In this document: piece after piece, positions 7,820 through 61,389 of the stretch
Layout: every line of letters begins with the position of its first letter
How positions within the stretch are numbered: the first letter of the stretch is position 1
Source: a virus
Virus record (IMG/VR): IMGVR_UViG_3300029813_000255
Span: 16,612 to 80,611 of that record
Length of the DNA: 64,000 nt
Direction: 5' to 3' (one strand)
The notes under the pieces: model-generated
Told to the model about the DNA's origin: nothing
Databases searched by the model: none
Seen by the model: only the letters and a program-made list of their open reading frames with translations
Translations under genes and position numbers: made by a program

Positions 7820-8142
7820 GACAAATAACTGGTAGGATTTGGTTAGGACGCTTGAAAGTAACATTTACACGTGTAAGTATGTACTTCTCGTATGTTAACT
7901 TTCTTTTATTGATTATGACGTTTTACAGTATAACAGGTTACAAATACGCTTCTTTATGGTTGTTTGCTTTAGTTGGTATAGTTGGTATTATAACTATGGG
8001 ATTGATTGACTATTTTGTTATGCTTCCATCCGAACAGGCTTTTATGAATCAACAGTTTGCACGCCATCAAAATCCAATATATGAAGATGTAAAGTACATC
8101 CGCAACGCTTTAGAAACAAAAAATGAGAAAAAAGATGAATGA
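7816..8142 (+). CDS. Small two-TM membrane protein
   Basis: Two hydrophobic segments; start coupled to the epimerase stop. Confidence 0.55.
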   Translation: MRQITGRIWLGRLKVTFTRVSMYFSYVNFLLLIMTFYSITGYKYASLWLFALVGIVGIITMGLIDYFVMLPSEQAFMNQQFARHQNPIYEDVKYIRNALETKNEKKDE

Positions 8143-8587
8143 ATGTAGAACAGTAAAATCTATTATAGTATATACAAAAACAAACGGATTCTGTACTTTT
8201 CTTAGTTCATATGGATATGTATATGTAAGAGAGAATATTGACAGGATTATTATGTCAGATTGGAAAGATTTTCTACGGTTGGTGTACTGTAACTATACAG
8301 ACTTGAACGGTTATCGTATCGTGGAAAACAATGACTCAATAAAAGTACGTAGGTTTGTAGAAGAGGAGAAGGAGACGTAATAACCAAATGGTACTTCCAA
8401 ATTTAGAAGGGTATTACAAAGAACGTGATAGATTAGTACGGGAAACAGAAATGGACTACATAGATGCTTGCAATTAAGCATGGCGCACAGAAATTGATAA
8501 GAAAAAAGAGAAAGGAACAAGGTATTAATAAAAAAGAAACGTTGGAATCCTTGTTCTTTATTATTTGTGTTGGATTAGTTGGATTAA

Positions 8588-8899
8588 CTAATACCCAGCG
8601 CCTCCACCACCGGTGCCGCCGAATCCACCTCTGATGTAGTATATGATTAGACCAGCCAGAACAGCTATTACTACGATCACCATCATTGACCATCCGGTAT
8701 TCATAATGGCAGTGATTTTTGTGAGTGCCGTATAGAATATACTACCACTCGTTATCTTTGCTATTCCATATATTTCGTTCACAACGTATACGGAGATTAC
8801 ACCTATCACTACAACGAAGAATATACCCATGGCTACGTCCTGTAGTTCTGCCATAGCTTTAACATCTTTGTGGAATTTTTCTATTGTATCTTTTATCAT
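8588..8899 (-). CDS. Putative major capsid protein of spindle-shaped-virus type (two hydrophobic helices) with class III signal peptide
   Basis: Own TATA (8941-8952, - strand) and GGAGGTGA SD (8905-8912) place the start at 8899; leader MIKDTIEKFHKDVKA|MAELQD; mature 88-aa hydrophobic helix-loop-helix with Gly-rich tail; T-rich tract downstream. Confidence 0.65.
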   Translation of the reverse strand: MIKDTIEKFHKDVKAMAELQDVAMGIFFVVVIGVISVYVVNEIYGIAKITSGSIFYTALTKITAIMNTGWSMMVIVVIAVLAGLIIYYIRGGFGGTGGGGAGY

Positions 8900-8962
8900 G
8901 TTGTTCACCTCCGCTTACAAATATATAGAAAAAAACATACTATATAAACTTTTAACAAAAAA

Positions 8963-9559
8963 ATGAAATTCAAAACCCTATTTGCTCTTTTTCTTAGTGC
9001 GTCAATTATTAAACTATTGTTCGCGGCGACCATAAATTCACCGCATATAGTCTTCGATGAGACAATTTTATTTATTGAATCTCAAACTATATGGCACAAT
9101 CACAGTTACTTCGGTGGAAGATTATTTGAATTTCCTCAGTATCCGCCTCTTTATCCTCTGCTTATCAGTCCAACAGCCGTTTTTACTGATGTAGTGCAAT
9201 CTTTTAAAGCGATTTTAGTAATAAACTGTTTTATCTCAAGCACGGTAATCTTTCCTGTGTATTATCTTGCAAAGGAATACCTACCTGAACGCGAAACACA
9301 GTTTACAGTCATCTTGATGTGTATATTACCATCATGTTTTCTCTATTCTTATGCTGTAATGTGTGAGAACTTGTTCGTACCATTATTTTTCTGTTCAATA
9401 TACTTTATAAAGAAGAGCATAGACGAGGATAGTTTCAGAAATAATACTCTAACAGGTGTTTTTATATCACTTACGGTTTTAACAAAACTAACTGGTTTGG
9501 TTCTGGTAGGAGTTTATGTTATAGTTAAAATATTTATGTATTTTAAAAGGATAGAATAA
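8963..9559 (+). CDS. GT-C (ArnT/PMT-like) membrane glycosyltransferase, N-terminal part
   Basis: FDE after TM1, YPPLYPLL, MCENLF, LTKLTG; polytopic. Confidence 0.78.
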   Translation: MKFKTLFALFLSASIIKLLFAATINSPHIVFDETILFIESQTIWHNHSYFGGRLFEFPQYPPLYPLLISPTAVFTDVVQSFKAILVINCFISSTVIFPVYYLAKEYLPERETQFTVILMCILPSCFLYSYAVMCENLFVPLFFCSIYFIKKSIDEDSFRNNTLTGVFISLTVLTKLTGLVLVGVYVIVKIFMYFKRIE

Positions 9560-10498
9560 ATGAAAAATAATACACTTTTTGGACTTCTTATAATCGTTCT
9601 TGTAATCATTATGTACTTCTTTCTAAATGCTTCTCACTATGGTACTTCTTCTCACTCAACCATAACAGGGTATGGAACAGGACGATTTACAACACAATTT
9701 TTTCCGCTTTTACTTGCACAGACTTTGTACCTTTCTCTGGCAGGAGCCGGAATAGCGTTCTTACTTTTTTTCGGTAAGCTCAAACAGTTCAAATTGTTCT
9801 GGTTAATAATTATTAGCTCGTTTATATTCATTGCTTATGCAATGCCTACTATGGGCGTTCACGGACGATATGTGGACGTGTTTGTCCCTTTGATGATAAT
9901 AGGTGCATTTGCATATAAGGAAGGAAATAAACTACGTTTATTGCAAGGTTTTACACTTATTCTCGTATCAATACCAATGTTCTGCTTGTTTTGGAGAGAT
10001 ACAATAAATACTTTCTCTAATATCTATGTACTTATTCCATATATTCAGTATCTCTATGTACCATATATATTTTTAGTGTTTCTTTTTTTGACATCAATGA
10101 CTGTTAAAGATAGAAAGAGAATTGCAACGATAACGTTTGTACTTTTACTCATAACGTTCACAGCGGGAAACGTTACAAACTTTCAATATCTTAATCAAGC
10201 TTCGGATAACGCTTACGAGCACAGTTTAATAGGAAGGTATATCAATGAAAACAAGAACGTTGACGTAACCTTTGACAAGGATAACTTTGAAGATTGGTGG
10301 GGCACGTACTGTTTACTGAATTACTACAACTCAGGATACATACCAGTGGAAGATACTGAAAACATGACAGGCAACTACTTCATTTCGTCAAAGACACTGC
10401 CTTGCGATGTATTAGTAACAAATAAAAAATTCTGTTTAGTAGAAGAAGATAATAGTACAGAACTGTTATATCTATATAGGATAGGAAGAAAATGCTAA
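9560..10498 (+). CDS. Polytopic membrane protein, probable C-terminal part of the GT-C glycosyltransferase
   Basis: In-frame TAA-ATG junction with the preceding ORF; HGRYVDVFVP (RY motif of GT-C C-halves); soluble C-terminal domain. Confidence 0.6.
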   Translation: MKNNTLFGLLIIVLVIIMYFFLNASHYGTSSHSTITGYGTGRFTTQFFPLLLAQTLYLSLAGAGIAFLLFFGKLKQFKLFWLIIISSFIFIAYAMPTMGVHGRYVDVFVPLMIIGAFAYKEGNKLRLLQGFTLILVSIPMFCLFWRDTINTFSNIYVLIPYIQYLYVPYIFLVFLFLTSMTVKDRKRIATITFVLLLITFTAGNVTNFQYLNQASDNAYEHSLIGRYINENKNVDVTFDKDNFEDWWGTYCLLNYYNSGYIPVEDTENMTGNYFISSKTLPCDVLVTNKKFCLVEEDNSTELLYLYRIGRKC

Positions 10499-10926
10499 AA
10501 ACAACCGTTGTATTGCTTTGCTTCTTGTTTGCTTCATATTTTGACATTAAAACAAGAGAAGTCAGTAACAATTTGTGGGTGATCGTGTTTCCATCAGGAC
10601 TGTTATTTTTCAGCTATGCGTTACTTCTTTCGTTTTTCACAGTCTTAACCTCGTTCTTAATAACAGCGACCTTTGCTTTAGGATGCTGGAAATTTAAACA
10701 ATTCGGTGGAGCGGATACAAAAGCGATCATAATAATAGGCTTGTTCTATCCATACTGGATGTACGGTGTACCTTTTGCTATTTTAGCTACTTCAATAGGT
10801 TGTGCTGTACTCATTATTTTTTATGGTATCCAAAAGAAGTTTCATTTTAAGGAGCACTATCCTTTAATCCCATTCTTTACAGTTGGTTTGATCCTACTGC
10901 AAACATTAAGGTTTATAAACTATTAA
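10492..10926 (+). CDS. Prepilin peptidase (A24 family, PibD/FlaK-like aspartic peptidase)
   Basis: ASYFDIKTREVSN (first catalytic Asp) and FGGADTK (GxGD-type second Asp); multiple TM helices. Confidence 0.88.
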   Translation: MLKTTVVLLCFLFASYFDIKTREVSNNLWVIVFPSGLLFFSYALLLSFFTVLTSFLITATFALGCWKFKQFGGADTKAIIIIGLFYPYWMYGVPFAILATSIGCAVLIIFYGIQKKFHFKEHYPLIPFFTVGLILLQTLRFINY

Positions 10927-10931
10927 TAGGA

Positions 10932-11156
10932 ATGAGTATTATTATGGAAAACGAAAGCACGGAAGTAAAGAAAATGAACAAAGCGACAATAATAGGTTTG
11001 GTAGTGGTAGTACTATTCTTTATACTACCTATAGCCAATGGAAACTCTGTCATTCCGAGCTGTATATCAGAGATAGAAGTAGGTGAGTTCATAGGTGGTA
11101 TATTGAACTACTGGATAACAGTAGTGAAGACAATAATTGCAACCGTGAAGTGGTAA
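10932..11156 (+). CDS. Small membrane protein
   Basis: Hydrophobic N-terminal segment; TATA-like AAGGTTTATAAA at 10908. Confidence 0.5.
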   Translation: MSIIMENESTEVKKMNKATIIGLVVVVLFFILPIANGNSVIPSCISEIEVGEFIGGILNYWITVVKTIIATVKW

Positions 11157-11217
11157 GCAGAAAAAGAGCGGAGCGAAGCGTAGCGATAAAAGATTGATGG
11201 GAGTGAGTTAAAATTTC

Positions 11218-11292
11218 AGGAGTTACCGATCAGTAACTCCTACCGACACAATAGGAAAGATACTTCTTAGGAGTTACCGATCAGTAACTCCT
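11218..11292. repeat. Two identical 24-bp palindromes AGGAGTTACcgatcaGTAACTCCT, 51-bp period
   Basis: Copies at 11218-11241 and 11269-11292; the second overlaps the stop of the wHTH gene. Confidence 0.95.
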
Positions 11293-11901
11293 AAAAATAT
11301 CCATTATTTTCTTTAGTTGTTTTGGTTTGAGTGCTGATCTGTAAACCACTTTTCCTTTTGCTAATCTGAACGTTATAAATAGTCCTGCTTCTTTAAGTTT
11401 TTTCAAATGCTTTTTTGTCATACATTCTTTGACATTAAATTTTTTCATAAACTTTTTTATTGTTATTTCTCCTTCTTCTAACAGTATTTCTATTACTTCA
11501 ATTGCATAATTTTGTTTTAGTATCTTAGTTATAGTTTCTTTATTTTCATTATAAGATACTGGACTTTTTGGTTTTTCAGAAGCAAAAAAGTTTATTGCAT
11601 CTATCTCCAAAAAGTTTTTGAGTTTAAAGCTACGTCCTTCTTTATCGAGAGTAAATGCTATTCTTTTCTCGTGTGTTTTCTTGTTTATTGAATAAGTTAT
11701 ATATGTTCCTCTTTGTTTTGCGTCAGTTGTATTTATAGGTTCGCGTGCTTTATTAGACCAATTCTCTTCAATAGTAGGGCTTAGTTTCGATAAGTCGTTA
11801 TAATGGTCAATCCCTTTGTTATCAATCCAGTGCCCTAACTTAGTTGCTCCTTCGGGAAAGATAATATTAGGATTCCTGCTTTTGCTTTTCTGAATTTTCA
11901 T
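11281..11901 (-). CDS. C-terminal winged-HTH protein (candidate Rep/regulator), paralog of 45454-46134
   Basis: YAIEVIEILLEEGEIT...HLKKLKEAGLF wHTH; shares MKIxKS start and VxYN motif with the paralog. Confidence 0.7.
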   Translation of the reverse strand: MKIQKSKSRNPNIIFPEGATKLGHWIDNKGIDHYNDLSKLSPTIEENWSNKAREPINTTDAKQRGTYITYSINKKTHEKRIAFTLDKEGRSFKLKNFLEIDAINFFASEKPKSPVSYNENKETITKILKQNYAIEVIEILLEEGEITIKKFMKKFNVKECMTKKHLKKLKEAGLFITFRLAKGKVVYRSALKPKQLKKIMDIFRSY

Positions 11902-12103
11902 TCTTTTTCTCTCGAACTTCTTCTAATACCTGACCAATAAACCAAGAATCCAATCCTTTGCCTAATAGGTCATATTCTTGCATCAATTCAAATATTTGTG
12001 CAGGTACTTTGATGTATATCTGCATTATTTTTTTTCTACTGTTCATCCTTTTTCTCAACTGCTCCTTTTTCCGGGCATCGTTTTCGTCCCCGCACTGAAT
12101 CAC
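11867..12103 (-). CDS. Small RHH/CopG-like protein, paralog of 45282-45485 (true start probably 12046)
   Basis: QIYIKVPAQIFELMQEYDLL..GLDSWF vs QVYLRVPVFVFDEMQKHGLL..GLDAWF. Confidence 0.6.
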   Translation of the reverse strand: MIQCGDENDARKKEQLRKRMNSRKKIMQIYIKVPAQIFELMQEYDLLGKGLDSWFIGQVLEEVREKKNENSEKQKQES

Positions 12104-12159
12104 TGAATTGTAGCTACTAATAAGATATTTAAGTCACAGATATATAAAGGTTTAATAAG

Positions 12160-12336
12160 ATGAACGAAAAAATAGAAGAAATAAGAATAAGTGATGTAGA
12201 AACTATAAATAAAATAAAAGCACTACAGAAACACAGAGAGAAATACATTACAAAAGGGAAGAAAGTAACAAAAAGGAAGATAGTACAAGAGTGTGTTAGG
12301 TTTGTGTATAATAATTATTATTTTGAGAAACGATAA
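12160..12336 (+). CDS. Small basic protein (58 aa, not in ORF track), possibly DNA-binding
   Basis: Open frame MNEKIEEIRISDVETINKIK...YFEKR, divergent from the wHTH module. Confidence 0.45.
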   Translation: MNEKIEEIRISDVETINKIKALQKHREKYITKGKKVTKRKIVQECVRFVYNNYYFEKR

Positions 12337-12342
12337 AGTAAG

Positions 12343-12861
12343 ATGAATTACAAAGGACATTTAATTACAGGTCTTTTTTGTTTCTGTACTCTCTCTGTAG
12401 CTCTCTTTATGTTTTCGTACCAAACATTTTGCTTTAATGATATACCTATATGGTTTATTGTATGTCTGTTTGCATCACTCGTACCCGACCTTGACCATAA
12501 AGCCAGTAAGATACATGAATGGGCTTATTTGTGTTCAATCTTTTCGGGTTGCAGTATATATCTTGTTACAGGCAAAGTATATCAAGCAGTAATAATCACG
12601 GTATTGCTCTTACTTATTATCTTTTCTCTCTCTAAATTAAAGCATCGTGGTGTTACGCATAGTGTGGTTGGTTTTGTTGTATTCACATTGTTATTGTATA
12701 TTGCTTTTTACTTTATTCATCCACATCCGGCTATAATTACGCTGTTTGGAGCGGTTGGATACCTGAGCCATTTAGTTGGTGATTATGTTTCTACGACTAT
12801 GAAAATAAGGAGAAACAAGAAGGAGAAAAGACAGAAGAAGAAAGAAAATAAAAATATTTAA
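12343..12861 (+). CDS. Membrane-bound metal-dependent hydrolase (YdjM-like)
   Basis: KGH, PDLDH, HRGVTHS, GYLSHLVGD. Confidence 0.88.
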   Translation: MNYKGHLITGLFCFCTLSVALFMFSYQTFCFNDIPIWFIVCLFASLVPDLDHKASKIHEWAYLCSIFSGCSIYLVTGKVYQAVIITVLLLLIIFSLSKLKHRGVTHSVVGFVVFTLLLYIAFYFIHPHPAIITLFGAVGYLSHLVGDYVSTTMKIRRNKKEKRQKKKENKNI

Positions 12862-12873
12862 ACCTTTATATAG
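12860..12873 (+). promoter_or_regulatory. TATA promoter class A (AAANNTTTATA); also at 15942, 24513, 26189, 36057, 38999, 44980, 46685, 48940, 55146 and on the - strand at 8941 and 12141
   Basis: Recurrent, mostly intergenic motif directly upstream of operon-initial genes. Confidence 0.75.
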
Positions 12874-13033
12874 AAGAAAATATATTTACGTATTAAAGAT
12901 AAAATGCCTTATATTAAAGACCCTGACTTTCGGGAGATATGCGTACTGGTGGAAATGATAGGAGAAACATCAGAGAATAGCGGAATCACAAAAATGGTAA
13001 ATAAAACAAACAATATCTTGGAGGGATACAAAC

Positions 13034-13855
13034 GTGAATGAGGAAGAGAGCGAAAAAGAATTTGTTGGTGTATGTGAATGCGGCTGCGGACAGCAAGTTA
13101 AACCAGGACAGAGATTCATTCAAGGACATAATGTAAGACTCATTTTATATGAAGTAAAAAAGAAAGCAGCAGAAAAAGGAAATATTACACGTAAGCGAAA
13201 AAGCGAAATTAAGCTTGGTATTCGTCCTCCACCCGAACCGATGCTGTGTGCATGTGGTTGCGGTAAGAAAGCAAAACTTGGAAATAGGTATATTATTGGT
13301 CACAACCAACAAGGTAAACACCATAGTGAAGCGCATAAGAAATATTTATCAGCTATAAATATAGGTGAAAACCATCCAATGTTTGGTACACATCCTTCAG
13401 AAAAGACCAGACAAAAAATGTCAGATTCTCACATAGGAAATCCTGGGTTTTGGACAGGGAAAAAATTTAGTGCTGAACATGTAAAAAATATATCTAAGAC
13501 ACACACAGGAAAAAATGGCGACAAAGGTTCAAACTGGCAAGGCGGAATCTCGTTTTTACCTTATTGTGAAAAGTTTACTAAAGAATTTAAAGAACGGGTT
13601 AGAGATTTCTTTGGAAGGTGTTGTTATCTCTGCGCTAAAAACGAAATAGATAATGGTCGGAAACTTTCAGTACATCACGTTAACTATCAAAAAGATGCTT
13701 GTTGTATAGACGAAGTTAGACCTTTGTTCGTTCCTTTATGCCAAAGTTGCCATTCAAAAGTACACAACGATAGAGATGGATGGGAAAAGTTCTTTACATT
13801 GAGCTTAGATTTTTTGACAGATGGAAAATGTTTTACACCGAAAGGAGATAGGTAA
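13034..13855 (+). CDS. HNH homing endonuclease with NUMOD3-type repeats
   Basis: CECGCG repeats, HPSEKTRQKMS, WQGG, CYLC...LSVHHVNY...LCQSCHSKVH. Confidence 0.88.
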   Translation: MNEEESEKEFVGVCECGCGQQVKPGQRFIQGHNVRLILYEVKKKAAEKGNITRKRKSEIKLGIRPPPEPMLCACGCGKKAKLGNRYIIGHNQQGKHHSEAHKKYLSAINIGENHPMFGTHPSEKTRQKMSDSHIGNPGFWTGKKFSAEHVKNISKTHTGKNGDKGSNWQGGISFLPYCEKFTKEFKERVRDFFGRCCYLCAKNEIDNGRKLSVHHVNYQKDACCIDEVRPLFVPLCQSCHSKVHNDRDGWEKFFTLSLDFLTDGKCFTPKGDR

Positions 13856-13857
13856 GC

Positions 13858-14415
13858 ATGTCAGAAGAATATGAAGATAGCGAAGAAGAATATGTTAGTA
13901 GCGGCGGTGGAATAACGGCTGGTAGTGGAGATATACAAAGACCGCCTGTTGTAGAGCCAGCAATTTCATTCGAAAACGAGTGGGTTAGATTTTTAGCCCT
14001 GTTAAGCGATGATTCTTCTCTTGGTCCGTTGATAAGTTATATTGAAAGTGTTGAACTAACAGATCGGGCAAAGGCGAAACTTCAAATATACATAATAACG
14101 TTGTTAGATAAGGAGTTTGCAATATCAAGGCTTGAAAATCGAGAGGACTACATGAAATTGATGGACGATAAATATATTTTGGATGCTGACTTACCACTGG
14201 GACTGACGAGATTTGATATTACTCCTGAATTTCAACATATTCTTGATCTGGTTAGAATCAAGTTTGGAATCAAAATAAGGAGAAGTATGGGTGCTGGCTT
14301 TGAACGTAAAATAATAGCCACTACAAGGTCTGAGAACGTTAATGAGGAGCGGATAAGAACAAAGGCAGCGAAAGCAGGAACAATTCAAAAGATAAAAGGG
14401 ATGTTTGGAGATTAG
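13858..14415 (+). CDS. Hypothetical protein (morphogenesis block)
   Basis: Long ORF in operon; acidic N-terminus. Confidence 0.6.
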   Translation: MSEEYEDSEEEYVSSGGGITAGSGDIQRPPVVEPAISFENEWVRFLALLSDDSSLGPLISYIESVELTDRAKAKLQIYIITLLDKEFAISRLENREDYMKLMDDKYILDADLPLGLTRFDITPEFQHILDLVRIKFGIKIRRSMGAGFERKIIATTRSENVNEERIRTKAAKAGTIQKIKGMFGD

Positions 14416-33538: not shown

Positions 33539-33802
33539 ATGCCAGCAAAAAAATATTCATATAGAGAACAAGATAGACGCGATGCAATACGATTAGCATT
33601 GCAACAAGCAAAAGGACGGGACGTTATCGTACAAAACAGGAAGTTGAAAGCAGAAGTAAATCGGCACGCTAAATTTTTTGAAGCATTAAAAAATGGAAAG
33701 GTCATCCCAAAACACATATACGATATAACGTTTAAGCGTGATTATCGTGGATTCATTAAGGATATAGAAAAATTTATTGGTAGGAAAGCATACGAAACAT
33801 GA
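33539..33802 (+). CDS. Small basic hypothetical protein
   Basis: ORF coupled to the next gene. Confidence 0.5.
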   Translation: MPAKKYSYREQDRRDAIRLALQQAKGRDVIVQNRKLKAEVNRHAKFFEALKNGKVIPKHIYDITFKRDYRGFIKDIEKFIGRKAYET

Positions 33803-34566
33803 AAAAAATATTGTATCTAATAGGAATAATAGCCTCCGTAATCTTTGTAAGCTGTCTAATAGGTTTAGTTTTCGCCTTACCAAATCCACATTCATTATCA
33901 GGACGTGTGTATGACAACATAGGCAATCCTATTAGTGATGTTGAAATAGTCTTAACTAATCAGCGCACAGAAGGACAGCTTTACGTAAAAACAAATCAAT
34001 GGGGCGAGTACCAACAGGATGCGTACAACCTACCAGAAGGTTACAAAAACGGCGATACAATCCATTATTACGCTCGTTTCAAAGGCTATAAATTAGAAGA
34101 GGCTGCTACAATAGATATTGCTAAGGGGGGTACGAAACTTAATTTTGTATTTCCATTCTGTTTAGGATTCATCACACCTAAAGGTACATATCCTTCTATT
34201 GCAGGCACGCACAAAGGCATAATCATACCAAGTGCAACTATAAACGTTTCACACATAGAAACACGTGCGTGTGAAGGTACAGGAGGACACGCTAAGTACG
34301 TTAAGATAACAGGTGACATTAGTTCAGAAGCAGTATGGAATGGCTATAACGACGAGTATCACACCTTAGAATTTGATGTACCCTTTACGTTAGAAAAAGG
34401 TAAAACGTACACATACGAGATTAAGACTGGTTCTTATCCACAAATTATACATCTGAGCGAGTTGGAAGTACCAGCGGGTGTAATCACGTGTACTGAATTT
34501 GTGGACACCAACGGAAAAGTTTATAAAGAAGGAATACCTTCTATATTGTTAGGAGAAGAGATATGA
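33799..34566 (+). CDS. Secreted protein: carboxypeptidase-regulatory-like domain plus C-terminal domain typical of ANME-1-type surface proteins
   Basis: PHSLSGRVYD..GEYQQDA; YPSIAGTH..GTGGH..TGSYPQIIH..CTEFVDTNGK. Confidence 0.7.
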   Translation: MKKILYLIGIIASVIFVSCLIGLVFALPNPHSLSGRVYDNIGNPISDVEIVLTNQRTEGQLYVKTNQWGEYQQDAYNLPEGYKNGDTIHYYARFKGYKLEEAATIDIAKGGTKLNFVFPFCLGFITPKGTYPSIAGTHKGIIIPSATINVSHIETRACEGTGGHAKYVKITGDISSEAVWNGYNDEYHTLEFDVPFTLEKGKTYTYEIKTGSYPQIIHLSELEVPAGVITCTEFVDTNGKVYKEGIPSILLGEEI

Positions 34567-35297
34567 ACAAAATGATATGGATGTTTGATATTTTAGCAGT
34601 GGTATTTATATTTTTGAGTATCTGTATAGGACTATCAGTAGCGCAGCCTTTACCTTATTCATTGTCAGGGCACATCTTAGATAATGAAAGTGAATACATT
34701 GTAGGTGCTGAAATCACATTGATAAACGAACGTACAAACGACACTTTAGAACTTGTAAGCACAACAAACGGAGAATACCAACAGGATGCTTATAATTTCG
34801 CATTCCATTATCTTAATGGCGACACAATAAGATATAACGTGACTTATGGCGACATAGGAGCAGTTGAACTCAATGATATAGATATTACGAAAGGAGGTAC
34901 GAAATTAGATATTACATTGACAGAAGAGGACAGTCCTGAAACCACACCTAATCCAACACCCAAGAATAAAGCACCACGTAAAACTACAGCGCATATGTAC
35001 GATGATACAGACGGTGACGGTGTTTCTGATACCGAAGAACGTGTAAGAGGATGGGATAAAGACGATCCATGTATTCCCAATTCAGATTCTTTTGCGTGTA
35101 AAAGTAAAAGTACACCTCAATTGACACCAGAAGTTTTCTCGCCTCTCAAAGAAGAACCCACACCAATACCAATGGTTAAAGCGACACCACGACAACCACC
35201 AAAAGTAATAGAATCACCAAAAAAGATGCCTGGATTTATTGGATTAGAGTTCTTAGCTGTTGTTATATTGTTTTTATATAAAAGGAGAAGGAGGTGA
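34563..35297 (+). CDS. PGF-CTERM surface protein with carboxypeptidase-regulatory-like domain
   Basis: PYSLSGH..GEYQQDA; DTDGDG; P/T linker; MPGF + TM + KRRR. Confidence 0.8.
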   Translation: MNKMIWMFDILAVVFIFLSICIGLSVAQPLPYSLSGHILDNESEYIVGAEITLINERTNDTLELVSTTNGEYQQDAYNFAFHYLNGDTIRYNVTYGDIGAVELNDIDITKGGTKLDITLTEEDSPETTPNPTPKNKAPRKTTAHMYDDTDGDGVSDTEERVRGWDKDDPCIPNSDSFACKSKSTPQLTPEVFSPLKEEPTPIPMVKATPRQPPKVIESPKKMPGFIGLEFLAVVILFLYKRRRR

Positions 35298-35510
35298 TAA
35301 AATGGTAGGATTGAAAGAAGACGATCACGTCAAGATCAAGAAAAAATGTATTGGTTGTCGGGAAAAAGCATATAATTTTCTTTTGGTAAAAAAGGTATAG
35401 TAAGAAAAATAGAAAGAGAGAATGGTAAATGCATATATGTTGTAGAAGTAGATAAGCGTTTATATACCTTTACACGTCAAGCAATAGTTAAAAAGTAGGA
35501 AGAAAAAAAA

Positions 35511-35702
35511 ATGAACACACGAATAAAAGAATACATCTTAAGTAAATGTGTAAAACAGAAAAAAGAACGTGATTTGCTGCCGCAAGTAACAAGGAAATTC
35601 GGTGTTACAAACGGTATAGCACAACAGTACATACGTAAATTAAAGAGCGAGGGATTATTGTACGTACCAGAAAAGAACACATTAAAAACAATAAATATGT
35701 AG
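35511..35702 (+). CDS. Small winged-helix protein
   Basis: IRKLKSEGLLYVPEKNTLK wing motif. Confidence 0.55.
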   Translation: MNTRIKEYILSKCVKQKKERDLLPQVTRKFGVTNGIAQQYIRKLKSEGLLYVPEKNTLKTINM

Positions 35703-35713
35703 GAGGTGACAAC

Positions 35714-35923
35714 ATGCTAATAAAAGGAAGAAAATTTAACGGGGAATTGTACCAAAATGAAGGATATGCAACTACGAAAGTAGAAGCAGAACGCAGGAAG
35801 AAGAAACTACAAGATCAAGGATTTAAAGTGCGTATAGTAAAACAAAAAGGAACAACCGTAATTGGTGCAACAAGCAAAGCCTATGGTAAAACGAACTATT
35901 TTATATATGCAAAGGCAAAATGA
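35714..35923 (+). CDS. Small basic protein (SPOR-like fold, related to 39022-39234)
   Basis: GGAGGTGA SD; KVEAERRKKKLQDQGFKVRIV. Confidence 0.5.
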   Translation: MLIKGRKFNGELYQNEGYATTKVEAERRKKKLQDQGFKVRIVKQKGTTVIGATSKAYGKTNYFIYAKAK

Positions 35924-36261
35924 GATAAACAAATGACACAGGATATAAAAACAGAAATGGAAGCTAAGGCGAAACGAGGTGAAATAGAAGGAGTATCTAA
36001 ACGTGCTATCTTTGACAAGGATGGAAACCTTTTTCTTGATTACTTTTGAAATAGGTAAAACTTTATATAGAAAGAAAAACAATGAATCCACGTGGTAAAG
36101 TTTGGGATGTAAAAAATGATAGAAACAGGAATCATTAACATAGGGTTTGCATTAATCGCAGTATTAGTAATAGCTAATCTATATTATGCGATCCGAATAG
36201 TAGATAAAAAATCCGATATTTTCTTATTTCTTGAGAAAGAAGAAACAGAGGAAAGTATAAC

Positions 36262-36858
36262 GTGGAATCAAAAGTAGTAGTCTTATTAGGACTCTGTGTA
36301 ATTTTAGGATTTGCAATAAACGGAGTTACTGCTTTGGATACACCTTATTCACTCTCAGGACATGTCTATGATAATAGTAGTAATCCGTTAGTTGGTGTAA
36401 ACATTAAACTCACTAATATGAACAGTACCAATGTAATATATGCAACATCAACCAGTGGAGGTGAATACCAACAGGATGCAGCTAATTTTGTATTAGGATA
36501 CAACAATAGCGATATTATCCAATATTACTGCACTTACGGTGTTGACTCGGTTACGTATAATGCAAGCATAGATACGAGTGGAGGGGGAACACTACTTGAT
36601 ATGTATATAAATGTTACTCCTATTACTCCTATTGATGATATTCCTATGACAATCGGGGACTTTGCGAAAGATATAATGACACCTATTTTCAGTTTCTTTG
36701 CCATATTAATAATAGCAGCCTTTACAGGTGTAATTATTTATACCATTAAGTATGGAATCAAAATAGACATACTAACGAAACTGACATTAGGCTTCACTTT
36801 TGCTGTAATAATACTACTATTAGCTTTATATATAGGAGAAACGTTTAGTTCATTTTAG
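36262..36858 (+). CDS. Membrane-anchored protein with carboxypeptidase-regulatory-like domain
   Basis: PYSLSGHVYD..GEYQQDA; two C-terminal TMs. Confidence 0.7.
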   Translation: MESKVVVLLGLCVILGFAINGVTALDTPYSLSGHVYDNSSNPLVGVNIKLTNMNSTNVIYATSTSGGEYQQDAANFVLGYNNSDIIQYYCTYGVDSVTYNASIDTSGGGTLLDMYINVTPITPIDDIPMTIGDFAKDIMTPIFSFFAILIIAAFTGVIIYTIKYGIKIDILTKLTLGFTFAVIILLLALYIGETFSSF

Positions 36859-37562
36859 TGAGTCGAAGAATGAAAATAGCAAAAGAAATATTAAAACTAA
36901 GCATAATCATATTTGTACTAATAACCTTAGTTACTGTTTCTTTTGCTGCTATACAGACAATAGGATCATCAAACGGTATTAATAATGCAACGCTAACCGG
37001 GGATATTACTTCAGGGGCACCTCCACCTGCTGAAGTTTGGTTTGAATACGGAGGTAAAACGGGGTGTTATTTACATCATTCTGAGCATCTAACTGTAAAT
37101 GCAACCGGAAATTTCATAATTAACATCTCAGGTTTTCCGCTCATATTGGAGCAGACATACTATTATAGAGCAGCGGGCAACGTATCTGGCAATGTTACAC
37201 ACGGCGGCGAAATGTCGTTTACTCTGGACCCTGCCGAAGATATGCCCGAAAAGAACTTTGGAAAGCATTTTGAAGAACTTAAAGAAAGCAGGTTTAATCT
37301 TACAAGATTAGCTACTGTTCTTCCGAAGACATGGACCGACATTATACTTGAAACCAGGATATTTTACGGGATGTTTTTCGGGATGATATTTTTAGCGTTA
37401 TGGATAAGACAAGAGGATGTCGGAATACCTGCACTGCTCGGAATGCTAATAGGAGGGACACTGTGGTACTGGTTACCGCCTGAGTGGATGAATCTTGTAC
37501 AATCGCTCTTTATAGTATCTTTTGCTGCACTTATATATGCTATAATAAAAGGGAGAAAATAA
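36858..37562 (+). CDS. FN3-like domain plus C-terminal TM helices (virion membrane protein)
   Basis: NATLTG, VWFEYG, TYYYRA; C-terminal TMs. Confidence 0.65.
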   Translation: MSRRMKIAKEILKLSIIIFVLITLVTVSFAAIQTIGSSNGINNATLTGDITSGAPPPAEVWFEYGGKTGCYLHHSEHLTVNATGNFIINISGFPLILEQTYYYRAAGNVSGNVTHGGEMSFTLDPAEDMPEKNFGKHFEELKESRFNLTRLATVLPKTWTDIILETRIFYGMFFGMIFLALWIRQEDVGIPALLGMLIGGTLWYWLPPEWMNLVQSLFIVSFAALIYAIIKGRK

Positions 37563-37563
37563 G

Positions 37564-37875
37564 ATGAAAGACGAAAAAAGGAAACACGTACCATTTTCGA
37601 TTGAAGTAAAGATAAGAGACTCAAAAGGAAGGACGGTCTGGAAATGGCGTGAAAGTCGTGGTAACCTTCTGTTTGGATTAAAAAAAACTAACGAGTATGC
37701 AGAAACATTACTTGGAATAGACAATAAACAACTACCGAGATCAGAGCCAGAGCCAGATACTAATATTAGGAGAGTCGAACCGAGAAACATTACATTCATT
37801 GAACGCGCTTTTGGAAAAATTGAACCAATCGAACCAATATTTGGAGTGAATAAAAAAGGAGGTGAGAGAAGATGA
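37564..37875 (+). CDS. Hypothetical protein
   Basis: ORF in operon. Confidence 0.5.
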   Translation: MKDEKRKHVPFSIEVKIRDSKGRTVWKWRESRGNLLFGLKKTNEYAETLLGIDNKQLPRSEPEPDTNIRRVEPRNITFIERAFGKIEPIEPIFGVNKKGGERR

Positions 37876-38123
37876 AATCTATTGGAATGGCGATTGTATT
37901 TACAGCGGTTGTCTTCATATTATTCATGGGTATTAGCATGATAAGTCAAATACCGGAACCAGATTCTGGAACAGAGGAATACACTCAATTTGAAAGCCTC
38001 GCTAAGATAGCAAATATTGGATATATAGGCTTCTATGCAGTCCTACTAATAATAATGGCAATTGCTATAATAATGGCACTGCAAATAGGATCAAAGAAAG
38101 GGAGCAGGAGAAGCAGATGGTGA
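37872..38123 (+). CDS. Two-helix hydrophobic protein (minor capsid-like)
   Basis: GGAGGTGA SD; two hydrophobic helices with acidic loop and basic tail. Confidence 0.55.
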   Translation: MKSIGMAIVFTAVVFILFMGISMISQIPEPDSGTEEYTQFESLAKIANIGYIGFYAVLLIIMAIAIIMALQIGSKKGSRRSRW

Positions 38124-38983
38124 AAACAAATGACATTGTAAAAATTAGTATAACAATAATGTTATTAACGTTAGCAGTGAGCAATAGCACAGCACTGACC
38201 ACTCCTTATTCTCTGAGTGGACACATCTATGATTCAGACGGTACAACACCTATTGTAGGCGCGAGTATCTCATTTACCAACCAGAACTCGTCAGAGGTGA
38301 TCTACGCTACCAGTACAACCAATGGAGAGTACCAACAGGATGCTGCTAATTTTGCATCAGGATACTATGATAACAATACAATACAATACCAAACAACCTA
38401 CTTTACACAATCCAATACTACCGCAGCAAACATAACTGTTTCAAGTGGAGGAACGTTACTCAACATTGTATTAAGTGCAGCTACTGGCGGTGCAAGTAAT
38501 ATAACGGCTGAAATAGGTAGCAGGTACATAAAATGGAGTTGGAATTCAAGTGGTAGTGTTGCAGTGTACATAGATGGTATATTCGTAACAAACACAACCT
38601 TAAATTATTACATTCTCTCAGATTTGAATCCACGTGAAACACACACAATTGCATTATGCAGTCCGAGTGGAGCTGTCTATGACAGTTCAAGTGACAGAAC
38701 CTTTTACCCCGAAATCTTATTCTACATCATCTTTCTTCTCGCGGGATTACTGCTAATAGCAGAAGTCATTGTAACTTTTATGCCGCAAAAAATGATTGGT
38801 ATTGTCTTAGGTGCTTTGGCTTTTATAATGGGTATTTTTGGCTTTTACATGGCTTATCCATACCACTTCTCAATTATGGCTTATTTATGTATTACAATAG
38901 CAGTCATAGCATTGATATGGATTATACTGATTATATTTAGTTTAATAGTACGCGAACCAGATGACTTTGGGTTGGACTTATGA
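38117..38983 (+). CDS. Membrane protein with carboxypeptidase-regulatory-like and FN3-like domains
   Basis: PYSLSGHIYD..GEYQQDA; YIKWSW; three C-terminal TMs. Confidence 0.7.
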   Translation: MVKTNDIVKISITIMLLTLAVSNSTALTTPYSLSGHIYDSDGTTPIVGASISFTNQNSSEVIYATSTTNGEYQQDAANFASGYYDNNTIQYQTTYFTQSNTTAANITVSSGGTLLNIVLSAATGGASNITAEIGSRYIKWSWNSSGSVAVYIDGIFVTNTTLNYYILSDLNPRETHTIALCSPSGAVYDSSSDRTFYPEILFYIIFLLAGLLLIAEVIVTFMPQKMIGIVLGALAFIMGIFGFYMAYPYHFSIMAYLCITIAVIALIWIILIIFSLIVREPDDFGLDL

Positions 38984-44100: not shown

Positions 44101-45281
44101 CTATATTACATTGTGCATAGATATGCACACAATAAAGAAGCTAAAATGGGGAGCAGTTACGGACAGCGGAGTATGCTTGGGATTGGTAGAGATAGCAATA
44201 TACACGATAGGAATGTGATAAAAATGCTAACACGTACAAACCACAAAAGTTTGTATGAAGAAATTTTATCGCGCCCTCAGTCTTGGAATACATTGAACAA
44301 CGCAGAAATGGAAACAATAAAAAAATTTGGAGAAAAATCAAAATGAGCAAAACGATTAGCTTCCCTTTTGAGTGGCGATATGGACACATAAGAAAACTCA
44401 CGAGAGAAGAAAAAAATGAAGCGAACAAGGAAAGGCACCAAGGCAAGAAACACTATCAAAAACCATGTGTACTGTGCGGTGAAGAGGGGCACATCGAATT
44501 TAGAAAAGTAAGTGAAGGCAATAGTTCTCTTATCTGTGAGTCCTGCGCCGAGCAATACGTTTTATCGGCGACAAGATTAATGGAGAAGGGAATAGAATGA
44601 GTAAAGTACTGGAATTTCTATCCGACACTATAAAGAGGAGTAGAGAAAAGGATGAATGAAAAAAGAAAAATAAGCACTATATGGTATTTTGTTGCCATTG
44701 CCGCTGCGGGTTTGTTTTTGGTATATGCCGGATTAGCTATCGCATGGATAATACCTATGGGTGCAGAGAAGTTAGATACGTATTTTAATGCTCCACAAGA
44801 AATTGCAGACGAAAGATTCATAGTAGAGTATCAAGAAACTGGTATTGGTATTTATCACGATAATGTGTTAAATGTAACTTGTTATTCAACAGGTGTAGGA
44901 CTTTCATGTATTCCTGATGGTGAAATAGGAAGAAGATGATGAAAAAACGGAGGAAGAGCACGGAAGGTTGTTATGTATTAAAAGTTTATATAGAATGAAA
45001 TTAAAGCATTTTACAGTGTTGAAATCTTATTTCATGTGTTATAGAGAGGTAGAGAAAAAGAATGGAAAAAATGAAAGAAGAAGGAGTGGAAATAAATAAA
45101 CGACAATGTACAATTTGCGGACACACACTACAAAAACGTAAGCCGGGATATGTATGTAAAAATTGGAACTGTCCTTTGTATTGGAAATTGGGAGTCGGTT
45201 ATGTATTTCAAATAACTGAAGGTGGATATGTTATTAACAACAGACTTCCAATGATAAAAGACGTGTTACGAGTATGGAAAA

Positions 45282-45485
45282 ATGAATGGAAAAAATGACA
45301 ATGGTTTAACTAAGCAAGTCTATCTTAGAGTTCCTGTTTTTGTGTTTGATGAAATGCAAAAGCATGGTTTACTGAATCCTGGATTAGATGCGTGGTTTAC
45401 AGCCGAAATTATGAAACGAATTATGGGTGGAAAAATGGAAGAGAAAAGTAACGATGAAAATAACAAAGTCATCCCCAGCAAGTAA
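45282..45485 (+). CDS. Small RHH/CopG-like protein, paralog of 11867-12103
   Basis: Direct peptide similarity; same gene order. Confidence 0.6.
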   Translation: MNGKNDNGLTKQVYLRVPVFVFDEMQKHGLLNPGLDAWFTAEIMKRIMGGKMEEKSNDENNKVIPSK

Positions 45486-46134
45486 AAGAGTTTCAAACAT
45501 TAGATCGGAAAGAATTAAAGTTGAACTCACCACAGATGACGAACATTTTCGGATAGAAGAAATACCACCTTTTGCAGACTTTCCAGACTCAAAGAAGTAC
45601 AGTTATAAATTTTTAGGATATACAAAAAATAAAAAAGGAGAAACCATACAAACATTCAGTGTAAGAAAAAGAAGGAAGAAAAAAGACGCTCACCTAACAC
45701 TCAAATGGAACGCAACTATTAAACTAAATGATATAACAGACATTAAGGATAATGATAATTATAAATTAGTTACAGTTCATCTCGGACTTCCGAAACCTAC
45801 AATACGAAACTTGAGAAACGAATTTAACAATTTTTTGAACCCAAAAACTTCAGTAAAATATAATCCTGATACAAACAAAATTCTAAAAATTATGGAAACG
45901 GAAAAATATGCTTTTGGAATAATAAAAATGTTATTTGAGAAGGATGAAATATTTACTGAAGAAATAATGGAAAGATTCATTATCACTAAACCAAGTGCAT
46001 TAAAATATCTGACTCAATTAGAGCAACATGAAATAATTGAATCCGACTCAACCAGACATAATAAAAAAGTCTACATGCTTAAACTTGACAAGGATGAATT
46101 AAAGAAGATGATAAAAGAATATTTTAAGTTTTAA
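45454..46134 (+). CDS. C-terminal winged-HTH protein (candidate Rep/regulator), paralog of 11281-11901
   Basis: YAFGIIKMLFEKDEIF..YLTQLEQHEII wHTH; MKITKS start. Confidence 0.7.
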   Translation: MKITKSSPASKRVSNIRSERIKVELTTDDEHFRIEEIPPFADFPDSKKYSYKFLGYTKNKKGETIQTFSVRKRRKKKDAHLTLKWNATIKLNDITDIKDNDNYKLVTVHLGLPKPTIRNLRNEFNNFLNPKTSVKYNPDTNKILKIMETEKYAFGIIKMLFEKDEIFTEEIMERFIITKPSALKYLTQLEQHEIIESDSTRHNKKVYMLKLDKDELKKMIKEYFKF

Positions 46135-46270
46135 AATGAATTAAGTTTTCTTTATTCAAAAAATCACGGAGCTGTAAGATAGTTCTAAAGTAGAATTAAG
46201 TTTTCTTTATTCTACTCCATAATTAATATATACTTATTATGCGGTAGAATTAAGTTTTCTTTATTCTACT
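46135..46270. repeat. Three ~28-bp imperfect palindromes AGTAGAATtaagttttctttATTCTACT, 54-bp period
   Basis: Copies at ~46135-46160 (degenerate), 46189-46216 and 46243-46270, directly after the wHTH stop. Confidence 0.95.
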
Positions 46271-46785
46271 TTTTATCTACACGAACGAAGCACGTAGAGA
46301 AGGTATTGTAAGTAAAAAACCACTTTAAGAGATATTTCAGAATGTTCTATTTTTAATTACTAAATTTAGTACACATCCACTCCTATCATATCATATCGCT
46401 TCGCTCTTTTTTCTGACTTACATAACTAAACAAAAGAAGAAAATTGAAACGGAGCGAAGCGTAGTGTAAGAATATAATTGGAGTAGCTAAATCAGAAAGT
46501 AAGACCTAAATTGGTTGGTAGCTACATACCTAAGCCCACCCTCCACCCCTATATTCTCTCTTAACGAGAGAATAAGAAACAACTACTCTGACAGGTATTT
46601 AACTAATATGGACGATTATAATCAGAAATATAAAACATTAGTACATTGTTTATGTTGGAACGCTTGAGAAGAGATGTTATAAATAAACCTTTATATACAA
46701 CAAAATCATAATAAAATAAAATACTCCAGTAGGTAAATTACACTACAAAGATAAAAAGCGAACTAAAACAAACTTAGATAGCGAA

Positions 46786-47202: not shown

Positions 47203-48039
47203 ATGGAGAAACCAAAGAAAAGGATTTTGGAAGAGTCCGACTTTGTTAAGAGTCTCCGAAAAACGTTACACGATGGTTTTGGTAAGTTTATTATTTGCAC
47301 AGGACTACCAGGTACGGGGAAGTCATACTGCGCGATCAGATTACTTGAAATAGTTGATCCTAACTTCTCTGCTGACAATATTGTAGTTGGAGATTGTATG
47401 GGTTTTGTGGATTTGCTTGAAAAAGCGTTGGATGGTACATTCAGTAACGGATCGGCGATTCTGTTTGATGAAGCTGGACTCGGACTTGCTGCGAGGGACT
47501 GGAGCCGAAAACAGAACAAATTAATGGCAACATGTTTTCAATTGATTCGGAAGCAAGGGTTACTAATAACGTTTACTGTGCCTAATTGGTTACAGATAGA
47601 TGTAAACAACAGGAGACTGGCGAACTATTGGATGAGTGCAATAGCAATCAATCGTAAACAGAAACGAGCATATTTTAAGCTGTGGCGGTTGCGCTTTGAT
47701 GAGTACATACCCAAACTTTTCAGATATAATATCAAAGAAAGAGGGCGTGATATTACGCGATGGGACTTTGCGCTTCCACAAAGAGTAGATTTGAAAGTGT
47801 ATGAAGAGAGAAAGGACAAAACGATTGGAAAGTTACTGGAACAGACAAAAAGCATTTTGGAAGATGATGGAGTGAAGGCAGTCGGAAGACCAACTATTGG
47901 AAGTGGGAAAGGAAGCATTGATAAGGTTGATGTCCTTGATTCCTTGAGTGGTGGAATGACACCACAGGAAGTAGCAAACAAACTGGGATGTACGATAGAC
48001 AATATTTATAAGATACGCAGACAGTTGGATGCACAGTGA
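47203..48039 (+). CDS. P-loop ATPase (Zot/viral morphogenesis-packaging type) with C-terminal HTH
   Basis: GLPGTGKS Walker A, ILFDEAG Walker B, IRK, IDVNNRRL; TPQEVANKLGCTIDNIYKI HTH. Confidence 0.8.
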   Translation: MEKPKKRILEESDFVKSLRKTLHDGFGKFIICTGLPGTGKSYCAIRLLEIVDPNFSADNIVVGDCMGFVDLLEKALDGTFSNGSAILFDEAGLGLAARDWSRKQNKLMATCFQLIRKQGLLITFTVPNWLQIDVNNRRLANYWMSAIAINRKQKRAYFKLWRLRFDEYIPKLFRYNIKERGRDITRWDFALPQRVDLKVYEERKDKTIGKLLEQTKSILEDDGVKAVGRPTIGSGKGSIDKVDVLDSLSGGMTPQEVANKLGCTIDNIYKIRRQLDAQ

Positions 48040-61359: not shown

Positions 61360-61389
61360 ACGTACCTCGGTCTTTAGACCGAGGTACGT
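61360..61389. repeat. Perfect 13-bp inverted repeat with TTTA loop (resembles an IS200/IS605 end)
   Basis: ACGTACCTCGGTC-TTTA-GACCGAGGTACGT. Confidence 0.75.

Follow-up and report, generated by a model that had tools for sequence, protein, structure and literature searches.

We analyzed a 64,000-nt window of viral DNA (bases 16,612-80,611 of the 80,611-bp IMG/VR virus record IMGVR_UViG_3300029813_000255; all positions below are those of the window unless another contig is named), which contains two copies of a compact cassette encoding a small protein and a winged helix-turn-helix (wHTH) protein and ending in palindromes. We call the copy on the minus strand module A and the copy on the plus strand module B; these are the only two copies in the 80.6 kb of the record. 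The record begins and ends with the same 141 bases (an end repeat) and so represents a complete genome, circular or terminally redundant, of ~80,470 bp. The genome is divided into a block of large structural-type genes and a block of enzyme genes, with nearly all genes on the plus strand. A first-pass annotation, made from the letters of the window, had described the two units as inverted paralogs and proposed that they are two replication origins of different specificity, or else paired sites for genome resolution or packaging. Both units are indeed present, and they point outward around an intervening block of plus strand genes; the proposal of two origins, however, is not supported, as argued below.

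Anatomy of the two modules

Module A occupies the minus strand and has every part that had been ascribed to it (a promoter, a small protein, a wHTH protein, palindromes at the stop codon, and a tail):

12141..12159, minus strand: promoter with transcription factor B recognition element (BRE) and TATA box, of the form AAACCTTTATATA; its sequence is TTAAACCTTTATATA, ending at ~12141
11867-12046, minus strand: small protein A open reading frame (ORF), 59 aa from the ATG, with a ribbon-helix-helix (RHH)-like pattern predicted from its sequence
11281-11901, minus strand: wHTH-A ORF, 206 aa, with an N-terminal domain and a C-terminal ArsR/MarR-like winged helix
11269..11292, no strand: palindrome A, proximal copy (RNA fold, -17.9 kcal/mol)
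11218..11241, no strand: palindrome A, distal copy, with 9-bp arms and a 6-nt center (RNA fold, -14.6 kcal/mol)
11153..11205, minus strand: tail A, containing CACTCCCATCA, four tandem NCGCT, a run of five thymines (T5, 11161-11165), CTG, and CTTAC

The core of the module A promoter is identical to those of the plus strand promoters at 12864, 46689, and 48944, and is of full-strength consensus. The small ORF had been reported to start at 12103; the ORF exists, but that position is an upstream GTG, and we favor the ATG at 12046 because the database contains a 59-aa homolog. The small ORF overlaps the start of the wHTH-A gene by 35 nt. Palindrome A has the form AGGAGTTAC-N6-GTAACTCCT with a period of 51 (two matches, vs. 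0.07 expected), and the left arm and center of its proximal copy carry the wHTH-A codons RSY and stop, with the TGA in the center. Tail A begins 12 nt beyond the distal copy and its end overlaps the stop codon of a convergent plus strand ORF (10932-11156), from which the wHTH-A gene is separated by a gap of only 124 nt.

The second unit is likewise real, on the plus strand, with its own promoter-like element, small protein, wHTH protein, three palindromes, and tail:

44976..45006, plus strand: promoter-like element, AAAAGTTTATATAG
45062..45298, plus strand: zinc-ribbon-like ORF (a weak match), 78 aa, the first gene of the module B unit
45282..45485, plus strand: small protein B ORF, 67 aa, homolog of small protein A
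45454..46134, plus strand: wHTH-B ORF, 226 aa
46136-46159, 46191-46214, and 46245-46268 (span 46136..46268), no strand: three copies of palindrome B
46378..46421, plus strand: tail B1, with two NCGCT pentamers and T6 (46407-46412)
~46432..46490, minus strand: tail B2, with about three NCGCT, in inverted orientation to B1 and in the same orientation as tail A
46135..46785, no strand: non-coding gap after wHTH-B, 651 nt, 71% A+T, the longest in the genome; the next promoter is at 46689
47203..48039, plus strand: P-loop ATPase of the DnaA-like type known from spindle-shaped viruses (phrog_5484, E 1.5e-13), ~1 kb downstream of module B

The 20-nt core of palindrome B, GAATTAAGTTTTCTTTATTC, starts at 46138, 46193, and 46247 (periods of 55 and 54; three matches, vs. 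0.05 expected). It differs from palindrome A, so the palindromes are specific to their modules, as had been noticed. Palindrome B is imperfect, with a T/T mismatch that is kept in all three copies; AATTAATATATA lies in the spacer that separates copies 2 and 3, a T5 comes after copy 3, and tail B1 starts 109 nt beyond that copy. A similarity to the promoter-like element of module B is found at the only other minus strand ORF (8588-8908), whose own promoter-like element (8936-8962, minus strand) is 85% complementary to 44971-44997 (plus strand).

The tail shared by the two modules was correctly described before: CACTCCyATCA, TATCGCT, and CGCTC-T5/6-CTG-CTTAC are found both at 11153-11205 (minus strand) and at 46378-46421 (plus strand). 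We additionally found a third copy, tail B2, which is a better match to tail A than B1 is, and has an exact 15-mer in common with A in a local alignment. All five occurrences of CGCTNCGCT in the window lie inside the three tails (0.42 expected). Tails B1 and B2 face one another across ~40 AT-rich bases and form an inverted pair of ~110 bp (46378-46490); their stems CGCTTCGCTC and GAGCGAAGCG are able to pair in a single-strand fold. Around the structural block, tails A and B1 are inverted repeats, and tails A and B2 are direct repeats. Read on the strand of their own module, tails A and B1 are pyrimidine-rich and end in T5 or T6, and archaeal RNA polymerase is expected to stop at such T-runs. 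The tail pattern had no exact match in IMG/VR or in the GTDB genome contigs. Two other identities of the tails were considered and rejected, both by eye: a coding remnant (one frame is open, but it is startless and B1 does not keep it), and transposon ends (no flanking target duplication).

Protein family, relatives, and paired palindromes

Modules A and B are, judging by their proteins, old and diverged paralogs. The small proteins share 35% identity (E 3e-13), and wHTH-A and wHTH-B share 30% identity over the C-terminal 91 aa (E 5e-9). Once other family members are added, the two wHTH proteins align over their full length, wHTH-A being ~20 residues shorter in the middle of the protein; thus the homology of the C-terminal wHTH that had been noted is real, but it is not confined to the C-terminus. 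An AlphaFold2 model of wHTH-B predicts a winged helix for the C-terminal residues 140-225 (predicted local distance difference test, pLDDT, 77-92). The best Foldseek chains for this winged helix are CadC, HlyU, and SmtB (E 3e-3 to 2e-2), with MarR-type proteins also among the best matches, and profile matches are to TFE, Lrs14-like, and MarR-type proteins. A comparison with Rep proteins had been suggested as a check of the origin proposal; the best structural matches are regulators, and Orc1 appears only at rank 48, via its winged helix. Because the winged-helix fold is generic, membership of the ArsR/SmtB group is not established by these matches, and every family match (ArsR/SmtB, SdpR, Sta1, and HpaR) scores below its curated cut-off. 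For example, wHTH-A reaches 17.8 bits against Pfam HTH_5 (cut-off 22) and 28.1 against NCBIfam HTH_metalloreg (cut-off 55), and wHTH-B reaches 13.3 against the latter (cut-off 55). Neither wHTH protein matched a P-loop or AAA family, which sets them apart from AAA+ initiators (Orc1/Cdc6, DnaA). Nor do they resemble an HUH Rep: the alignment of 13 wHTH sequences has no conserved H-x-H, and Y207, one of its invariant columns (M1, S69, T82, L83, F127, I143, L144, A153, E165, L186, and Y207), sits in the wing. A search of the ESM Atlas with the N-terminal domain gave no usable match (template modeling score, 0.41 or lower).

The small proteins fit the RHH pattern hxhxhP-helix-G/D-helix by sequence alone. 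None of eight members had a Pfam match at E up to 10, a PDB profile search returned no RHH chain, and Foldseek gave no match. The AlphaFold2 monomer has a predicted extended stretch at residues 10-18 and helices at 19-27 and 33-59 (pLDDT 63), and a homodimer prediction (0.38, against a mark of 0.42) speaks neither for nor against a dimer. As a separate observation, both wHTH genes rank among the genome's most AT-rich windows of 400 nt (0.74 at 11305-11705 and 0.76 at 45877-46277, vs. 0.64 overall), and may have a history that differs from that of their neighbors.

Relatives of the cassette are few. For wHTH-A we found three close relatives (80-93% identity); for wHTH-B, a search of 1.84 billion representatives gave five matches, of which three are full length (32-58% identity). 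A scan of JGI metagenome contigs identified eight loci, which form one subfamily ~32% identical to wHTH-B, and a scan of GTDB contigs added one further locus (genome-contig L012). The family used here comprises 13 aligned full-length wHTH sequences and 18 small-protein clusters. In IMG/VR, searches with wHTH-A, wHTH-B, or their alignment found no relatives, and neither palindrome had a match; tblastn of the wHTH proteins against the GenBank phage and PLSDB plasmid collections had no match either. The cassette would therefore seem to represent a tiny protein family without annotation, and it was found only in a small group of what appear to be marine-sediment archaeal viruses.

An expectation attached to the earlier annotation, that homologs carry their own downstream arrays, was borne out. 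All eight loci that have DNA after the gene (seven from metagenomes and L012) carry, starting 3-5 nt beyond the stop codon, a palindrome of their own type, xxGCTTTTTAAA(A/T)TTTAAAAAGCxx (the L-type palindrome). A second L-type palindrome follows 58-59 nt further on in five loci and 67-68 nt further on in two; the eighth contig ends earlier. The spacing of about five helical turns that had been read from the two modules is thus not constant, since periods of 51, 54-55, 58-59, and 67-68 are observed. A homologous small ORF overlaps the wHTH start in all six metagenome loci that were examined and have upstream DNA (three of these six have a second small paralog), and L012 has a small ORF too. With a palindrome of its own at eight of eight related loci, and the small ORF kept, protein and site look co-inherited, which is in line with the co-evolved pairs that had been proposed. 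In the two long loci, the cassette lies between a homolog of the 1319-aa structural-type protein of the window and a helicase gene, as module B does; this helicase is 57-60% identical to that at 51096-52238, and was the only one of nine window proteins to match the relatives by tblastn.

The DNA after the relatives' wHTH genes has further common features. The AATTAATATATA 12-mer is found exactly in L003, L005, L006, and L012, and as close variants in L002, L004, L007, and L008; it could be an unwinding stretch or a TATA box. The spacers between the relatives' palindromes are 82-85% A+T. None of the related loci, on the other hand, has the tail. The stretch Q(I/V)Y(I/L)(K/R)VP is common to small proteins A and B and differs in the relatives without a tail, and for this reason one idea is that the small proteins may read the tails while the wHTH proteins would read the palindromes. 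Several side observations concern the same regions. The motif GTAAGA reaches 4-9 per kb, vs. 0.6-1.6 per kb overall (the counts are small), in the non-coding DNA that follows the wHTH gene, namely in 46135-46785 of the window and in four of six stretches from relatives (L003 8675-9399, L004, L006, and L008), with none in the short L002 and L005 stretches. The relatives' downstream regions also hold other palindromes and ATGTATAAA repeats, and L003 has, in the non-coding region after its cassette, a second, truncated copy of the helicase gene's first 30 codons (9086-9175). Elsewhere on two of these contigs (L003 16037-16657 and L008 14168-15058) there is an ORF that resembles, by eye, a fragment of RNA polymerase subunit A''.

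Comparison of 14 related palindromes (13 distinct) revealed that their arms change together. Of all cells, 93.3% are paired, four of the 15 pairs have changed on both sides, and there are 23 double-changed cells compared to 8.9 +/- 2.5 in shuffles (none of 500 shuffles reaches 23); sliding the pairing partner by 1-3 columns abolishes this covariation signal. For example, two copies in one locus differ by compensated changes (TCGC...GCGA vs. TGGC...GCCA), of which L012 has another compensated version, and in palindrome B a compensated T-A to A-T exchange beside the core sets copy 1 apart from the other two copies. On the sense strand several outer pairs are T-G; the other strand would have C-A mismatches there. 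Predicted hairpin energies, in addition to those of the two palindrome A copies given above, are -9.5 kcal/mol for copies 2 and 3 of palindrome B and about -14 kcal/mol for the relatives. A plain double-stranded operator read by one protein would be insufficient to account for compensated differences between two copies in one genome; the pattern says that a hairpin or cruciform probably matters, in RNA or in unwound DNA, and the compensatory changes argue for a hairpin (of RNA or of single-stranded DNA) no less strongly than for a double-stranded operator. A role of the repeats as terminators only, for which the first-pass annotation had allowed, therefore keeps some probability. These hairpins are not a general operon-ending device of the virus, since perfect hairpins are not enriched genome-wide (14, vs. 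8-21 in 20 shuffles). A terminator scan flags copy 1 of palindrome A; copy 2 of palindrome A and copies 1 and 2 of palindrome B have no T5 after them. Rfam at gathering thresholds returned nothing, with sub-threshold look-alikes of miRNA and sRNA hairpins in both downstream regions, and half-sites of the palindromes elsewhere in the genome form no pattern at promoters.

Module B at the skew minimum and module A as a probable optional copy

The surroundings of module B differ from those of module A in several respects. The most AT-rich 400-nt window in the genome starts at 45877, and the 651-nt gap is its longest non-coding stretch. The genes after the gap are a 138-aa ORF and then the P-loop ATPase with a C-terminal helix-turn-helix (47203-48039), which PHROG annotates as "DnaA-like replication initiation protein" and which also matches, weakly, two haloarchaeal viruses, of which one is named as spindle-shaped. 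We computed skew at fourfold-degenerate sites of the plus strand genes over the whole circle (GC4 for G vs. C, AT4 for A vs. T). In the enzyme block, GC4 skew lies between +0.25 and +0.42, and in the structural block between -0.07 and +0.21; AT4 skew shifts in the opposite direction. The detrended cumulative GC4 skew has a single minimum at 46,916, just after the gap, and a single broad maximum at 14,249 (flat over ~8.4-15.9 kb); its range is 117 vs. 62.8 +/- 13.2 under permutation of the gene order, and none of 2000 permutations reaches this value. The same step is found at the cassettes of L003 and L008 (GC4 of -0.06 and 0.02 upstream; +0.28 and +0.24 downstream). This is the pattern expected for two-directional replication from module B, with the forks meeting near module A. 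A skew analysis had been proposed as a check on both modules; it agrees with an origin at module B, whereas module A has no minimum and lies near the maximum. The combination of AT-rich non-coding DNA, repeats, an adjacent replication gene, and a skew minimum is found at module B only, and by these sequence features the region fits an origin or a control region.

Module A has a different setting. The 124 nt downstream of its wHTH gene are 62-63% A+T and the spacer of its palindromes 63%; its best 100-nt window is 61% A+T, a value equaled or exceeded by 76% of the windows in the genome. Contigs of four public runs were compared with 8000-14000, with 80% as the likeness threshold. In one contig of run X5, from a related virus, 11143 is joined to 12344 across 30 unrelated letters; the whole of module A is missing and the two plus strand genes are neighbors. 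A contig of run X1 carries module A in the same place at ~91% identity. Contigs of X1 and X5 skip 12120-12343, which holds a 58-aa plus strand ORF (12160-12336), so this spot is variable among relatives. An insertion or deletion of module A among relatives is likely, but not certain, because the evidence consists of single contigs at the 80% threshold. Equipped with its own promoter and T-run, module A looks like a self-standing unit that was inserted between genes, and it is probably an optional copy rather than a second origin.

The wider genome is that of an archaeal virus, judged by its promoters and genes. The promoter form across the virus is AAACCTTTATATA (BRE/TATA), and the gene set includes an RNA-primed-type family B polymerase, RFC-like and PCNA-like proteins, a prepilin peptidase, and a PGF-CTERM cytochrome. 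Structural and enzymatic "arms" have been described for large spindle-shaped and head-tailed viruses of ANME-1 (anaerobic methanotrophic archaea, group 1) (PMC9894754). A provirus with att sites was considered and dropped; because the virus record is complete, with end repeats, the flanks are viral, including the genes to the left of module A (glycosyltransferases and a peptidase). No RNA runs containing this DNA stretch were found. Two further observations concern other parts of the genome: four paralogous ORFs with a CarboxypepD_reg-like start and common repeated DNA segments (33799-38983), and a GC-rich perfect palindrome with 11-bp arms and an 8-nt loop (61360-61389) in the interval that separates the genes for the PGF-CTERM multihaem cytochrome and the RFC-like protein.

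Possible roles of the cassette

The reading that we tentatively favor, while granting that it is somewhat more apt to be wrong than right, is that module B is an origin or an early-late control region at which the wHTH protein acts in cis, and that module A is an optional copy with a second specificity. The cassette is a self-contained layout of its own promoter, a small basic protein, a protein of ~210 aa with a C-terminal winged helix of transcription-factor type, two or three cassette-specific, hairpin-forming palindromes that begin at the stop codon or up to 5 nt from it, and a T-run. Module B is the conserved, in-line copy, which closes the structural block and opens the replication and DNA-metabolism block, also in the relatives; its 651-nt gap is the best candidate for a replication origin or early-late control region. 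The wHTH protein, made beside the gap, would bind its own dyad repeats in cis, in a scheme that resembles plasmid replicons with the origin after the initiator gene. Module A would be a reversed copy of different specificity placed between two plus strand genes, most likely an extra DNA-binding or regulatory unit, and perhaps acting against or alongside related viruses.

Several points weigh against this reading. The winged helix resembles those of the ArsR, MarR, HlyU, TFE, Sta1, and Lrs14 regulators and not initiators particularly; family scans found no ATPase, nuclease, or primase domain in wHTH-A or wHTH-B, and no longer, fused form of the wHTH protein was found (in itself weak evidence). 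Residues 1-44 and 77-137 of wHTH-B have no confident AlphaFold2 model, with a pLDDT below 50 in the N-terminal domain. T-G pairs that occur on the sense strand only, together with the compensatory changes, are as expected for RNA hairpins of a 3' untranslated region. A T5 comes after the third hairpin of module B, which looks like a terminator, and the L-type palindromes hold T5 in both directions. The skew step coincides with the border between structural and enzyme genes, so it may reflect gene class or expression and not replication. As a control, two HNH-type genes within the structural block share the low skew of their neighbors (22 G to 19 C), which points to position over gene class, but the control is small (41 sites). 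Finally, the indel of module A comes from one contig of one run at 80% likeness.

The main alternative is that both modules are ordinary operons of viral transcription factors (a small protein plus a wHTH regulator), with hairpins in the 3' untranslated region that end or stabilize the transcript and shield the neighboring unit, no origin being involved, and the skew being a gene-class effect. We consider this unlikely on balance, while taking it seriously: every structural and sequence match is to wHTH transcription factors, each module has its own promoter and terminal T-run, the predicted hairpins are stable (-9.5 to -17.9 kcal/mol), and the compensatory changes with sense-strand T-G pairs, the placement of T5 (after copy 3 of palindrome B and on both strands of the L-type), and the terminator-like copy 1 of palindrome A suit it. 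It would not explain, however, why such hairpins are unused at other operon ends, why there are two or three copies with paralog-specific sequences, or why the T/T mismatch is kept in three B copies; neither palindrome has a copy near a promoter, where a regulator would act, and the skew minimum at module B would be left as a coincidence. The two origins of the first-pass annotation, with orthogonal pairs of initiator and site at either end of the structural block, would account for paralogous proteins with differing palindromes and for the position of both modules at the block borders, where the skew changes, but are very unlikely given one skew minimum at module B with module A near the maximum, the short downstream region of module A without an AT-rich stretch, and a related contig that lacks module A.

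Two other explanations use the repeats or the tails in a different way. Centromere-like arrays follow genes for DNA-binding proteins in known partition systems (sopC and parS follow sopB and parB), and the small protein, the wHTH protein, or both could bind such an array after their genes and keep an episome in the carrier state. Dyad repeat arrays directly after a DNA-binding protein gene and a P-loop ATPase gene 1 kb after module B would agree with this, but we consider it highly improbable: neither module has a ParA/Walker-type ATPase, none was seen by eye in the ORF lists of L003 and L008 (no family scan was made), the repeats number only two or three, and the nearby ATPase matches DnaA-like and Zot-like families. 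The tails could instead be recombination sites, and it is here that the earlier suggestion of resolution or packaging belongs. A serine recombinase (55211-55822; Pfam Resolvase, E 2.9e-40) is encoded ahead of a RusA-like gene, whose counterparts in the relatives are 70-72% identical; the recombinase could invert the 35.3-kb structural block or excise it as a circle, since tails A and B1 are inverted and tails A and B2 direct. There are exactly three tails in 80.6 kb, with an exact 15-mer, far better kept than the 20-35% identical proteins, and they are absent from the relatives, whose ORF upstream of RusA, at the position of the recombinase (L003 14106-14738; L008 11583-12215), looks, by eye, tyrosine-recombinase-like. 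On the other side, the tails by eye have no dyad symmetry of the kind used by small serine recombinases, no alternative junction was found among the loose ends and joints listed, an X1 contig runs across the junction at tail A in the arrangement of this genome, and the recombinase gene is 9 kb away; we rate this role as extremely unlikely. A more speculative combination, for which we also hold little expectation, would make the cassette a cis-acting origin module of large spindle-type archaeal viruses, in which the gene of an initiator-like wHTH protein ends inside its own hairpin array, with recombination between tails A and B2 releasing a self-replicating 35.3-kb circle that carries both cassettes.

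Returning to the reading of module B as an origin or control region, the known systems that it calls to mind are similar in layout only, and the cassette qualifies as a member of none of them (ColE2/ColE3, R1, lambda O, or archaeal origins with origin recognition boxes, ORBs, and a DNA unwinding element). In the Rep-ori of ColE2/ColE3 and the repA-CIS-oriR of IncFII R1, the origin comes immediately after the initiator gene, and the two co-vary in specificity; lambda O has dyad iterons. The cassette is like these in its dyad repeats directly after the gene of the candidate binding protein, its paralog-specific repeats, the adjoining AT-rich DNA, and the plausibility of action in cis; unlike them, it shows no detected homology and no demonstrable primase, AAA+, or two-winged-helix Rep architecture, has only two or three repeats, and has arms that are compensated as in a hairpin. 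In archaeal chromosomal origins, ORB dyads flank an AT-rich unwinding stretch beside orc1/cdc6. The dyads 51-68 bp apart and the 82-85% A+T spacers of the relatives are comparable, as are the inverted tails around an AT-rich center, the adjacent initiator-like ATPase gene, and the skew minimum of module B; the differences are that the wHTH proteins lack AAA+, there is no ORB consensus, and module A has no AT-rich spacer.

Resemblances to regulators and to inserted units are also partial. The C-terminal 85 aa form a predicted winged helix like those of the ArsR/SmtB and MarR regulators and of Sta1 of archaeal viruses, and a pair of a small and a larger DNA-binding gene is common in archaeal viruses, whose known regulators include F55 of SSV1 (an RHH protein) and SvtR. 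In contrast to such regulators, the cassette scores below their family cut-offs, has an extra N-terminal domain of 130 aa, and has its candidate sites after the gene and not at the promoter. Phage "morons" are stand-alone units of promoter, gene, and terminator inserted between genes. Module A resembles them in its own consensus promoter and T-run, its reversal relative to the neighboring genes, and its presence in some relatives and absence in another, but differs in its cargo, which is a paralog of a conserved core cassette of the same virus, repeats included.

We found no description of the cassette in the literature on ANME-1 viromes and spindle-virus origins; the terms "winged", "ribbon-helix-helix", and "origin of replication" do not occur in the consulted passages of PMC9894754. 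No origin of a spindle-shaped archaeal virus (SSV) had been functionally characterized as of 2018 (PMC6080066). Half-size and full-size circular genomes have been reported for ANME-1 spindle viruses (PMC9894754), and the release of a self-replicating 35.3-kb circle, if true, would provide a mechanism for them.

Large ANME-associated viruses are known from metagenomes only. A cassette that lies at the junction of structural and enzymatic genes and at the skew minimum, with repeats that evolve fast yet are always paired, offers a concrete 650-bp target for studies of the origin and of binding. The cassette would define both an unannotated protein family and a candidate origin in this poorly known group of viruses, and module A suggests that a cassette of this kind can be duplicated, or exchanged, as a unit on its own, which may bear on incompatibility or interference between related viruses.

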